A DNA stretch of 64,000 nucleotides from Perna viridis (lineage: Eukaryota): assembly GCA_037379345.1 (NCBI GenBank), contig CM074516.1, positions 29,797,626 to 29,861,625 on the forward strand, given 5' to 3'. Under the pieces are notes generated by a model. The model ran no database searches and was not told the DNA's origin. It saw only the letters and a list, made by a program, of their open reading frames with translations. Below are positions 39,506-62,646 of this stretch, piece by piece; the stretch's first letter is position 1, and the number at the start of each line of letters is the position of its first letter. The translations under genes and the position numbers were made by a program.

Positions 39506-40432
39506 ATGCCATTGCTTAGTCTAAAACACTACAGGCTTTTTAGAGTTATCTATGAAATAATGGAAGATGTTTTAAGAAATCTTTTTGACTGCTATCTTAA
39601 AAGAAACCATACTACATTTGAAAAATTTCTCAACGATAACCAACATGATATTTATCATTTCTTTATGAACAAAGAACCCTGTTGTGTGTGCCAAGGAAGA
39701 AAGCGTCATTTTCAGGTGGAAAGAGTCCTTCAGGAAAGTCAGTTTAAAACAGTTTTTGATGTAAGCTCAACTAGAAAAACAAATCATCTTCCAAAAAACT
39801 CTGGTAAATTTTGTTGTTGTTTTGCAATAAAAAATGTGCAAACAGACGTCTTAGACTTCACATTATTGAGGTTTTTTCTCGTAAACTTTTGTGAAGACCT
39901 GATCTGGCACCGTTGTGAAGAAGAGACCGGAAAGGATTTTCCAGAAATATTGTTACAATATAGACATGACATTTATCATCTATTCAATGACAGAGTATCT
40001 TGTTGTCAGTGTAGATCAGGCTATGAAAAACCAAAAGCGTTTAGAAAGGCAGATCCGAAAGATTTAAGGAAACTTTTTCTTCCTCATAACAATAAAAAAT
40101 GTCAAAAATTTTGTTCATGTTGCTATGAAAAAGACACGACCCTTACATGTGAATCATTGAGAAAAAACATAGGCCGACAAATGTTTATTTATTTGACGAG
40201 TTATATATGTAATATGCGAAATCTTATTGAACAGGCAACTAATTTGAGAAATGATATAGTTCATAACTGCACAACAATGTCAGATGAAAGGATGACTTTA
40301 GTTTGGGAGGAATTAGAAGCATGTGGCACTCAACTGGCTAAAGTTGCACAATGTGAAGAAACCACAAGAGAAAAGTTCAATGAAATCAAATCGTGTACGT
40401 TCGATCAAGAACATTGTGAGCAAATGATGGTG
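39506..40432 (+). CDS. exon encoding DZIP3/hRUL138-like HEPN domain with duplicated Cys-rich inserts
   Basis: YRLFRVIYEI..DVLRNLFD start, LDFTLLRFFLVNFC, RxxxxH motif LRNDIVH (40247-40264), then MSDERMTLVWEELE; donor GTTAGT at 40433. Confidence 0.75.
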
Positions 40433-61400: not shown

Positions 61401-62646
61401 CCTAGTATTATTCGTTTCTATGGGACATCAATAGAACAGTCTACTTTTGGTATACCTGGAAAAAATGTCATGGAGCAGCGTGGATCAGATTACAAACCGG
61501 ACCCTGACATGAATGATATTTCTGTGCATCATCTGGTACGAAAACGTGGGGACTATTTAGAAGAGATTCGTAAGTTTGAAGAAAAGTTTAGACGGGACCC
61601 ATATCGAATTGACTCAAAAACTATGTCAGATTATCGGGATCTTTTAAAAAGTGCAACAATTGCCGAAATAAGACGACATGATGTGATTCTATGTACAACA
61701 TCAATGGCAACGAGTCCAAGATTACTGGAAGCAGTAGGGAAAAAGATTTCACAGCTTGTAATTGATGAAAGCGGAATGTGCACGGAACCAGAAAGCATTG
61801 CCACTATAATTGCAGCAAGACCTAACCAAGTAACACTAATAGGTGACCATATGCAACTTCGCCCTATAGTGATGTCAAAACATGCTGCAGATCTGGGGCT
61901 CCAAAGATCTCTTTTTGAAAGATACAGTCGACATCTTGGAAAATCAAAATTTATTCAGCTATATCGGCAGTATAGAATGGTATGTTTGATAAAAATGGTT
62001 CGGTATCTATGTAACAATCGAGTTTTAAAAATTATAATTATAAAAAAGCTGTTACCCACAATTATAATTTTACAATGAGGAAATAAACACAATCAAAAGG
62101 AGAATTTTAACCCGATTTCATCATTATTGACCAAAACTACAGGATACTGACTGCAAAACCTGGATACTATCAACCCTTTTTTTACAAGACCGATGTATTC
62201 TCACATATTTTGAAAAGCAAACAAAATCCAAAATATAATTAGTTTAACATCCTTAATGTGTCAATAAAACACTTCAATTTGATTACTATGCAAACGTAAT
62301 ATAAAATATTTTATTAATTATGTTTGTAACAGTAGATAACAAACCCGTCTGTACGTAAATTTATCACCAGTTTACAAAGGCAGTAATGATATTTAATTAA
62401 TTGCTTCAGCACAAAAGCATCTGTCACTTCCCATCTACGGAATTCTACAACGGAAGTCTTAAAACTGAACCATCTGCATCTTATGAAGAGAACCCAAGGT
62501 TATCCATCTGGCTAAATGACCGCGGATTACATCGGGAAGAGCGTCATGTATTTTGTCATATAGAGGGCGTGGAAGAGGTTTCAGAAGTGAGCACCGAGGA
62601 CCAAAATGAACATTCATTCAAAAATGACAAAGAGGTAGAGCAAGTA
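39506..62646 (+). CDS. HELZ2: HELZ2-like multi-exon gene: HEPN - C2HC ZnF x2 - RNB exoribonuclease - SF1 (UPF1-like) helicase; 3' end outside window
   Basis: Proposed exons: 39506-40432, 42608-42689, 43054-43200, 45822-45911, 47615-47683, 48232-48368, 48644-48817, 49800-49830, 50183-50515, 50953-51092, 51461-51549, 52409-52496, 53206-53294, 53543-53618, 53933-53984, 55015-58618, 58947-59032, 59396-59521, 60893-61033, 61369-61979, 62410-62646. All GT-AG, phases compatible, 7329 nt without a stop. RNB followed by SF1 helicase is the HELZ2 signature. Confidence 0.7.
40866..42219. mobile_element. MITE (outer) with ~80-bp imperfect TIRs, intronic
   Basis: CGTGCACACCCCCACTCATCAAC...TACCTCCCATTACCGAATC vs GATTCGTAAATGGGAGGTA...GTTGATAAGTAGGGGGTGCACG. 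Confidence 0.65.
41131..41988. mobile_element. palindromic MITE (inner) with ~340-bp TIRs
   Basis: 41131-41470 is the reverse complement of 41654-41988 (TAGGGTTT...AAACCCTA). Confidence 0.85.
48232..48368 (+). CDS. exon encoding C2HC zinc finger plus basic NLS-like stretch
   Basis: DIHKCGKCGMEFTVLDEYLKH......CKKRLKRK; AG/GTAAGT boundaries. Confidence 0.75.
50183..50515 (+). CDS. exon encoding alpha/beta domain with GSLVV motif
   Basis: ORF 50197-50568; phase-1 acceptor (50183 or 50195) and donor at 50516. Confidence 0.7.
50953..51092 (+). CDS. exon encoding second C2HC zinc finger plus basic stretch
   Basis: DTFKCGRCDQVFYQVEFFCSHKLECKRKRKKRR; TTGCAG acceptor, GTAATT donor. Confidence 0.78.
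51891..52135 (-). mobile_element. SINE (5'-truncated) with 14-bp TSD, intronic
   Basis: AGCAGGACAGTAGA at 51877-51890 and 52136-52149; (TTGA)n tail; homologous to 27715-27959. Confidence 0.85.
54157..54869. mobile_element. MITE with 19-bp TIR and internal ~21-bp AT-rich minisatellite
   Basis: TATGGCAAGCCAAAGTGGA ... TCCACTTTGGCTTGCCATA; internal TTTT(G/C)TAATATTA(G/C)AAAAT repeats in both orientations. Confidence 0.85.
55015..58618 (+). CDS. HELZ2: 3.6-kb exon with cold-shock/OB-like region and RNB (RNase II/R) domain of HELZ2-like protein
   Basis: ISGRSKCGKAFSDDEVVVEIL, RRDLR..VFSIDPEGSKVFDDAIS, VGIHIADV, LVEQFMVLTN, YVHFTAPIRRYIDIVVQRLL. Acceptor TTTTAG at 55014, donor GTAAG at 58619. Confidence 0.92.
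58947..59032 (+). CDS. HELZ2-like exon (linker before helicase)
   Basis: RTEVCIENLNKADRLAKAIALNKDLPED; phase 2 in, phase 1 out; GTAAGT donor. Confidence 0.75.
59396..59521 (+). CDS. helicase exon, Q-motif and first half of Walker A
   Basis: NSRQSEAIRKALKNRLSLIHGPPG, spliced to TGKT in the next exon. Confidence 0.85.
60102..60275 (+). mobile_element. tRNA-derived SINE fragment with extra 3' segment
   Basis: B box GTTCGAGTC; homologous to 8857-9020 and 60500-60608. Confidence 0.65.
60456..60624 (+). mobile_element. tRNA-derived SINE with (TA)n tail
   Basis: A box TGGCCGAGTGG, B box GTTCGAGTC, Leu/Ser-tRNA-like head, non-tRNA body, related copies in window. Confidence 0.8.
60893..61033 (+). 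CDS. helicase exon, Walker A second half and motif Ia
   Basis: GTGKTYT...ILVCGPSNKSVDLIA. Confidence 0.9.
61369..61979 (+). CDS. helicase exon, motifs Ib, II, III, IV
   Basis: VILCTT, LVIDESGM, LIGDHMQLRP, SLFERY, QYRM; GTATGT donor. Confidence 0.92.
62410..62646 (+). CDS. helicase exon, start of RecA2 (AAA_12-type) domain
   Basis: HKSICHFPSTEFYNGSL...SFKNDKEVEQV; GTAAGT donor. Confidence 0.88.

Follow-up and report, generated by a model that had tools for sequence, protein, structure and literature searches.

An endonuclease ahead of an RNB exonuclease is already known from DIS3/Rrp44, in which a PIN endonuclease and an RNB exonuclease share one chain, and RNase L, Ire1, Csm6 and RAZR are switchable effectors of the HEPN type. 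Human HELZ2 (PRIC285) has the order zinc fingers, helicase 1, cold-shock domain (CSD), RNB and helicase 2. The human protein is interferon-induced and degrades structured RNA with ATP through the joint action of helicase and RNB (PMC10516660). Bivalves expand DZIP3-like HEPN domains and shuffle them, together with TRADD-N, onto immune proteins, the published partners of bivalve HEPN domains being NACHT, TPR, RING, ankyrin, death-like, PARP, cGAS and WD40 (PMC9646362, PMC3710099, PMC8195603). The gene described here, from the mussel Perna viridis, codes for a HELZ2-family protein that carries a HEPN domain, an RNB exonuclease domain and one superfamily 1 (SF1) helicase in a single chain. It lies on the plus strand, from position 39506 onward, of a 64,000-nt stretch of DNA (the window; assembly GCA_037379345.1, contig CM074516.1, positions 29,797,626 to 29,861,625 of the forward strand).

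The splice sites, read from the sequence of the window together with 40 kb of downstream genome, give a model of 23 exons, all bounded by GT-AG, which join into 7,530 nt with one terminal stop and encode 2,509 amino acids (aa). The encoded domains follow in the order HEPN (with two Cys/His inserts), zinc finger, TRADD-N-like, zinc finger, cold-shock/RNB and one UPF1-like helicase (Table 1). A preliminary description of the sequence had already placed on the plus strand a HEPN-like open reading frame (ORF) at 39506-40432 with the motif RNDIVH, an RNB exon at 55015-58618 and helicase exons up to 62646, and these hold, as does its claim of GT-AG introns with one open frame across the exons. Its tally of 21 exons and 7,329 nt up to 62646 gives way to 20 exons and 7,056 nt between 39506 and 62646, again a single open frame, a count that contig sums back between 40432 and 55015. 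Nor does the gene end at 62646, since three further exons past the window complete the helicase. In the unspliced sequence these parts are visible as a stop-free ORF at 39464-40459 that contains RNDIVH, a 1,290-codon ORF at 54750-58619 and short helicase ORFs up to 62676. An extra coding exon was sought in introns 1-21 with a simple splice pattern, and zero stop-free, frame-keeping candidates were found.

The single-chain architecture is very probable, carried as it is by spliced RNA contigs and by the independent RefSeq models of two Mytilus species. Four sequencing runs were aligned to positions 39300-59299 (20 kb); the runs X1 and X2 were taken for RNA by guess, but their contigs are spliced. 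Exons 17-23 lie beyond this stretch, and their basis is splice sites and homology. A 10,988-nt X1 contig (X1-record 2) carries, in order, 39694-40431, 50230-50513, 50951-51090 and 55013-58618, thereby linking the HEPN exon to the whole of the RNB exon; it does not end before 55015, as a transcript of two separate genes might have done. The gaps in this contig measure 556 nt (from 40431 to 50230) and 394 nt (from 51090 to 55013), which equal the sums of exons 2-7 and of exons 10-14, respectively, and the 394-nt spacing is repeated in X2-record 8, from a separate study. Five GT-AG joints of the model (48368-49800, 49829-50230, 50513-50951, 51090-51459 and 58618-58947) are among those displayed. 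Contigs of two runs hold every one of them, and the raw reads that show a joint number 1-6 per run. The junctions 40432/42608, 43200/45822 and 53984/55015, named in the preliminary description, are absent from the 15 joints displayed (of 69), and the contig arithmetic supports them. Over the RNB exon (bins 55308-58642), the first mates of raw reads lie on the minus strand only, at low depth, which fits plus-strand RNA. The X1 contig extends 5,270 nt past 58618, of which 1,624 are coding, so that a 3' untranslated region of about 3.6 kb is implied.

Read-through, or an error of the preliminary description, could in principle have joined two neighbouring genes, one coding for HEPN and the other HELZ2-like. 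Such an origin would suit the Mytilus models that lack the head or hold the head alone (P0143, P0142, P0327, P0347 and P0025), and a de Bruijn contig is an assembly and not one molecule. The exact exon sums of the spliced contig, the frame that stays open over all junctions and the recurrence of the architecture in three full-length RefSeq proteins, from two species and two paralog lineages, largely refute this explanation and leave it scarcely credible.

Table 1. Features of the HEPN-headed HELZ2-like gene of P. viridis, in window coordinates
Feature	Position	Strand	Basis
Exon 1 (aa 1-309), DZIP3-like HEPN with two tandem Cys/His-rich inserts (HDIYH...CCxC...CC; predicted zinc-binding)	39506..40432	+	relatives, hhalign, repeat score, structure model, contig from 39694
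HEPN motif R248-N249-x3-H253 (RNDIVH)	40247..40264	+	R, N and H each kept in at least 90% of 45 rows; motif closes helix 236-253 of model
Exons 2-3, spacer past HEPN domain	42608-42689, 43054-43200	+	GT-AG, in frame; within the contig's 556 nt
Exons 4-5, Ser-rich acidic linker	45822-45911, 47615-47683	+	within the contig's 556 nt
Exon 6, zinc finger 1 (C-x2-C-x12-H-x6-C)	48232..48368	+	weak zf-C2H2 match, E 0.031; conserved in Mytilus orthologs; joint 48368-49800 in four runs
Exon 7, 31 nt	49800..49830	+	both joints seen in RNA contigs
Exon 8, TRADD-N-like domain (RRM/ferredoxin-like fold, GS turn)	50231..50515	+	Atlas clusters, GSL invariance, model, joints
Exon 9, zinc finger 2 (C-x2-C-x12-H-x3-C) and basic patch	50953..51092	+	conserved in orthologs; joints
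Exons 10-14, low-complexity acidic linker	51461-51549, 52409-52496, 53206-53294, 53543-53618, 53933-53984	+	394-nt sum equals contig gap in two runs
Exon 15 (3,604 nt): OB_HELZ2 ~55455-55733, RNB ~56154-57254, then region leading to helicase	55015..58618	+	Pfam; contig covers exon whole
Exons 16-20, UPF1-like SF1 helicase: motifs I (GPPGTGKT), Ia, II (DESG), III	58947-59032, 59447-59521, 60893-61033, 61369-61979, 62410-62646	+	AAA_11, AAA_12; joint 58618-58947 in three runs
Intron 20, runs past window end	62647..64000	+	exon 21 next, outside window
Exons 21-23, helicase motifs V and VI, stop codon	64028-64211, 64794-64961, 67468-67589, counted on from window (L019:28-211, 794-961, 3468-3589)	+	splice sites, homology

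The body of the protein is that of HELZ2. The Pfam scan yields the RNB domain (PF00773, E 1.5e-62), OB_HELZ2 (PF25049, E 1.7e-18) and the AAA_11 and AAA_12 matches, the RNB and helicase profiles being those expected beforehand. OB_HELZ2, RNB and a C-terminal UPF1-like helicase stand in the same order as in HELZ2, and identity to the vertebrate proteins is about 28-30% over some 1,550 aa. Among the RNB catalytic residues D1160, V1166, D1168 and D1169, aspartates 1, 3 and 4 are kept and the second is replaced by valine, a position that is substituted in human HELZ2 as well, which stays active all the same (PMC10516660); the stretch of the catalytic arginine, HFTAPIRRY, is intact at 57186-57212. 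The helicase motifs I, II, III, V and VI are likewise intact and UPF1-like. Unlike HELZ2, the mussel protein has neither helicase 1 nor the six-finger array of alternating C2H2 and CCCH types, containing two C2HC fingers only, and it begins with a HEPN / C2HC / TRADD-N-like / C2HC head. Only one Walker A motif occurs in the 2,509 aa, and the X1 contig leaves no space for more exons between 40432 and 55015, and hence for a helicase 1 ahead of RNB. The helicase kept corresponds to helicase 2, which in the restriction of LINE-1 counts more than helicase 1 (10.1101/2022.03.26.485892). From residue 856 to 2504 the protein aligns unbroken with the M. edulis protein XP_071138091.1 at 51% identity; by domain, identity to that protein is 33% in HEPN, 34% in the finger unit, 53% in cold-shock/RNB and 63% in the helicase.

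DIS3 offers a second comparison, as it also places an endonuclease N-terminal to CSD-RNB, and its RNB is homologous (E ~1e-29 to 1e-34 against DIS3 and DIS3L2 structures). In the mussel protein, by contrast, HEPN replaces PIN, the helicase is built in where DIS3 relies on a separate Mtr4 or Ski2, and there is no sign of an exosome link.

The assignment of exon 1 to HEPN comes from its relatives. These number 138 at E up to 0.001 among 1.84 billion representatives, and 34 of the 45 that were aligned match PF18738 (HEPN_DZIP3) at E up to 0.01, the best at 5.7e-13; comparison by hhalign with four strong PF18738 domains gives a probability of 95% and E 3.5e-8. The HEPN identity claimed for 39506-40432 in the preliminary description thus stands by way of relatives and not by a direct Pfam match. 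Conservation in the 45-row alignment reaches at least 90% at R248, at N249, at H253 and at eleven His/Cys positions, and RN-x-H is kept in 63 of the 70 relatives (of 148 rows) that cover at least 250 profile positions. The motif thus has the R-x4-6-H form of HEPN RNases, with a polar residue next to R and a place where a helix ends. The Cys/His-rich insert is present in two copies (internal repeat score 82, against a maximum of 62 in 1,000 shuffles). An AlphaFold model of the exon is helical with a mean confidence (pLDDT) of 92.3, and HEPN_DZIP3 and DUF4559 clusters appear in the Atlas at 0.94-0.96, a lead only, as their recognition value is low. A PDB sequence search with the HEPN alignment returned two matches at chance level, and a word-based search aimed at longer proteins related to exon 1 (542-2,000 aa) scored none of 419 candidates, a weak negative. 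Prediction of a HEPN homodimer, in which the alignment was left unused, scored 0.22, under the mark of 0.32, and speaks neither for nor against pairing.

As in the DZIP3/hRUL138-like HEPN proteins of bivalves (HEPN-NACHT, HEPN-nSTAND3 and HEPN-TRADD-N fusions), the HEPN domain is N-terminal, bears R-N-x-H, belongs to a lineage-specific expansion and is associated with TRADD-N; a difference is that in the mussel subfamily a pair of Cys/His inserts interrupts the Pfam match. In the P. viridis genome, PF18738 matches number at least 63, and exon 1 is matched 18 times. Of the long relatives within the exon 1 subfamily, 35 were scanned, and the domain stands at the head of immune-type proteins: nSTAND3 NTPases in 12, a TIR protein in one and a WWE-PARP in one. 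The "other modules" that the preliminary description had seen behind HEPN are two C2HC fingers around the 94-aa TRADD-N-like exon, a unit conserved in the orthologs and also found after HEPN in PARP and stand-alone models. One M. coruscus model carries the complete head (HEPN with zinc finger, TRADD-N-like domain and zinc finger) 5' of PARP12-like CCCH, WWE and PARP domains; among the models sharing the head (P0089, CAC5363372.1 of M. coruscus; P0025; P0059; P0366), each a single gene model, one shows this PARP fusion, another has a second HEPN and two are stand-alone. None of the eight matches to PF25261, the PARP12-like fingers, in the P. viridis genome lies near any of the 18 exon 1 matches, so that the HEPN-PARP fusion is known from the one M. 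coruscus model.

Exon 8 is likely a member of the TRADD-N family, as judged from sequence clusters and a predicted fold. The signature of TRADD-N domains is an RRM-like fold in which a GS turn links strands 2 and 3 (PMC8195603). The model of exon 8 (pLDDT 69.5) has the order beta-alpha-beta-beta-alpha-beta with G39-S40 in a turn, and GSL is invariant across 7 exon 8 rows. Two Atlas clusters that match the exon, at 0.93 and 0.91, carry PF20694 on 18% and 58% of their members. The model matches ferredoxin-like folds with Z up to 7.9, the best rows being general ferredoxin-like ones; TRADD-N is not among the structural rows listed, and both Pfam and Foldseek (E up to 0.001) gave zero matches.

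The full-length RefSeq proteins that share the architecture are XP_071138091.1 (M. edulis) and XP_076078164.1 (M. galloprovincialis) (2,617 aa), and XP_071136862.1 (M. edulis, 2,601 aa), all three labelled only "HELZ2-like". They come from 61 further cluster members listed and answer the search of mollusc proteomes for HEPN, RNB and AAA domains that had been proposed earlier. Each has RNB and one helicase and matches the HEPN profile at residues 1-325 with E 1e-94 to 1e-102, a profile built with close relatives of the Mytilus heads; the independent figures are plain BLAST values of 1e-39 and 2e-22. Against PF18738 the Mytilus orthologs fall below the cut-off, at E 1e-4 to 2e-4. About 125 kb from the window gene lies a tandem paralog (C6:29989674-30011800, L023-L026) with the same succession of HEPN (RNRLSH), zinc finger, TRADD-N-like domain, zinc finger, RNB and helicase, about 36% identical to the window gene over RNB. 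The HEPN domains of the two paralog lineages are just 27-33% identical, and both lineages keep R-N-x3/4-H. Each lineage has a Mytilus ortholog, and the fusion therefore predates their split. The Mytilus paralog pairs would also be linked, to judge from the accession numbers of their records.

A cold-shock/RNB tree (quick maximum likelihood, all 62 rows, with SH-aLRT support only, no bootstrap, and a midpoint root) places the window gene in a 47-row clade of mollusc single-helicase proteins (SH-aLRT 99), apart from the two-helicase HELZ2 proteins, which include a P. viridis gene on C4. The identical split appears in a 29-row tree with the paralog added, which pairs the window gene with XP_071138091.1 (100) and the paralog with XP_071136862.1 (100). 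The mollusc relatives, known from database models of Ostrea, Saccostrea, Argopecten, Mercenaria, Patella and Mytilus, share the RNB-helicase body at 31-39% identity; unlike the window gene, they have TPR-like or short acidic heads, judged by eye, and most keep the second RNB aspartate. No full-length member of the 47-row clade has a helicase ahead of RNB, their heads being mostly TPR-like or short. The preliminary description had HEPN and other modules in the place of the first helicase; helicase 1 is indeed absent, but HEPN did not itself displace it, as the wider single-helicase clade bears other heads. Within this clade the window gene falls into a 15-row subclade (SH-aLRT 99) together with the two HEPN proteins of M. 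edulis; most of the subclade's rows are single-exon records in which heads are not visible. The change of Asp to Val is seen directly in 13 of the 15 rows and through cluster representatives in the other two, and the sister rows have Asp in both rows where the motif was found. Molluscs probably lost helicase 1 early, the order of events following from the midpoint root. If that root holds, the HEPN head would have been gained later, in a mussel ancestor, by one subclade, with tandem duplication thereafter. A tree of HEPN domains only (FastTree) neither groups the HELZ2-fused ones into one clade nor excludes them from it.

Further HELZ2-like genes occur in the genome. Six have a single helicase, five on C1 (47.36-47.67 Mb) and one at C6:27.84 Mb (L032-L056); in three of the six the RNB aspartate motif is gone, and two of those three also have broken frames; no HEPN exon was found in the stretches examined, where some have TPR-like upstream exons. 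The two-helicase gene at C4:5.47-5.51 Mb (L027-L031) has TPR-like and CCCH exons and an RNB without DxxxxxxxDD, by its sequence possibly a pseudo-nuclease.

A HEPN head without catalysis, serving to bind RNA, to dimerise or to bind pathogens as the TPR-like heads of sister proteins might, would make the protein an ordinary single-helicase HELZ2-like exonuclease. Sister clades do manage without HEPN, the domain being absent from all 89 scanned RNB relatives of 709-2,258 aa (the first 89 of the 120 representatives listed, the remaining 31 being RNase R-like and DIS3L2 rows) and from all 30 longer ones. Furthermore, HEPN is among the fastest-changing domains, and its motif spacing differs among orthologs (Rx4H or Rx5H). 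Nevertheless, this is quite unlikely, as each of the five RNB-linked copies seen (window gene, paralog, P0289, P0290 and P0328) still has R, N and H, and so do most relatives, as given above. An active enzyme for the turnover of endogenous RNA, in germline transposon silencing or in the mRNA decay of developing or symbiont-bearing cells, would be compatible with the presence of the gene sequence in many sequencing runs from several studies, and in the bacteriocytes of a deep-sea mussel a helz2 gene of unspecified paralogy acts as a hub (PMC13401447). However, the family shows what is typical of immune genes, namely expansion of paralogs, swapped heads, rapid divergence and degenerate copies, and the partners of HEPN are immune domains, so that a role outside defence is decidedly improbable.

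The function favoured here, with little more than even confidence, is RNA decay in innate immunity: a switchable HEPN endonuclease would first open invader RNA, on which the helicase and the 3'-5' exonuclease of the same chain would then act; RNase activity, dimer switch and immune role are all proposals. The helicase and zinc fingers would load onto viral or retroelement RNA. Two chains would then meet and their heads pair, a step in which the TRADD-N-like domain might act as a switch or offer a docking site, and the paired HEPN motifs would cut the RNA. From the newly made ends the helicase would unwind and RNB would trim the pieces. Pairing would be required for cutting, since HEPN RNases need two motifs side by side and the chain has one; in Las1, the HEPN active site is formed by two HEPN motifs (10.1101/760058). 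RNase L, Ire1, Csm6 and RAZR, too, have a single HEPN motif per chain, on whose pairing activity would depend; unlike them, the mussel protein has no kinase, CARF or ankyrin sensor, and its partner domains are RNA-degrading enzymes.

Several observations weigh against this function. Exon 1 has no HEPN family match in the direct Pfam scan at E up to 1, which the splitting of the domain by the two Cys/His inserts probably explains. A structure search with the HEPN model puts Csm6 first (Z 5.9, root-mean-square deviation 3.8, 110 aligned), within the range of common helical folds; HEPN-type chains at ranks 1, 7, 12, 14, 20, 25 and 31 (Z 4.3-5.9) are mixed with unrelated bundles, and Foldseek returned zero matches at E up to 0.001. 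RNA depth is low, about 1-3 over exon 15 in two raw runs (about a fifth of each run). The RNB exon of the tandem paralog has two frame changes in the assembly, one at a short G run, reflecting either a pseudogene or an assembly error. Cleavage by HEPN enzymes usually produces a 2',3'-cyclic phosphate end, from which RNB enzymes start poorly, and direct hand-off from HEPN to RNB is therefore uncertain. The Asp-to-Val change at the second RNB position is less conservative than the asparagine of the human protein. In the literature as far as accessible, a search found no biochemical test of a DZIP3-like HEPN, and the oyster Helz2 induced by OsHV-1 (10.64898/2026.05.15.723513) is not identified as a member of the HEPN-headed subfamily.

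In the main rival to this function, the two ends of the protein would divide the work differently, with the RNB-helicase body mainly sensing or loading on foreign RNA and clustered HEPN heads acting as a non-specific shut-off nuclease on host tRNA, rRNA or mRNA, so that translation arrest or cell death would follow, as likened to RNase L, Csm6 and bacterial RAZR. The same type of HEPN is the N-terminal effector of nSTAND3/ankyrin NLR-like proteins (PMC9646362), TRADD-N domains have been proposed as switches for such effectors (PMC8195603), RAZR is a zinc-finger RNase turned on by oligomerisation (PMC13017515), and the clade-wide Asp-to-Val could weaken RNB. Still, conservation is highest in RNB and helicase (53% and 63% identity to the ortholog), and the metal-binding aspartates and catalytic arginine motif are kept, which fits an active exonuclease and makes this division of labour rather unlikely. 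A broader form of the favoured RNA-decay function can be offered only tentatively and is doubtful: a self-contained animal antiviral degradosome, in which mussels would have joined a portable HEPN / zinc finger / TRADD-N-like / zinc finger head to restriction factors that target RNA, namely two HELZ2-like genes and a ZAP/PARP12-like one known from a single model. The product would be an RNA-triggered, dimer-gated endonuclease that shares its chain with a helicase and an exonuclease, for an RNase L-like response without 2-5A.

The rest of the window adds some observations of its own. A 12-codon upstream ORF (39486-39524, with ATGs at 39486 and 39495) overlaps the start codon of the gene out of frame and could damp translation if the stretch lies in the mRNA; a likely acceptor stands 5' of it, at 39457-39458. 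Intron 14 is filled, just 5' of the RNB exon, by an AT-rich (21% GC) degenerate tandem and palindromic repeat (54186-54837). A broken Gypsy-type retroelement occupies 10500-19540 on the minus strand, with reverse transcriptase and RNase H matches and an env-like frame that weakly matches Baculo_F (E 0.0013); an inverted copy of 5.3 kb of this element stands at 1-5278 on the plus strand, with 97.3% identity. Broken BEL/Pao remnants (Peptidase_A17, integrase zinc finger) at 19231-29113 form nested inverted duplications, 19231-22365 against 25972-29113 at 99.1% and 22363-23188 against 24825-25651 at 98.5%.

The combination of three enzymes extends the known pattern of HEPN shuffling and is apparently undescribed. 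RNB goes unmentioned in the main text of PMC9646362, PMC3710099 and PMC8195603 and in the searchable supplements of PMC8195603, and the supplement of PMC10516660 mentions neither mollusc nor HEPN. A literature search whose scope lay outside most subscription journals found no paper naming both HEPN and HELZ2 and none joining HELZ2 with Mytilus. Because its HEPN domain falls below the Pfam cut-off, the gene has been hidden under the label "HELZ2-like". In bivalves, which have no adaptive immunity, most antiviral effectors are still unknown; the gene is a concrete candidate, with three RNA-acting enzymes on one chain. It also gives a handle on whether the DZIP3-like HEPNs expanded in bivalves, called RNases on motif grounds in the accessible literature, cut RNA, and on their switch. 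Within one mollusc genome, HELZ2 is modular and takes two-helicase, TPR-like-headed and HEPN-headed forms, which suggests that helicase 2 and RNB are the working core of the family.

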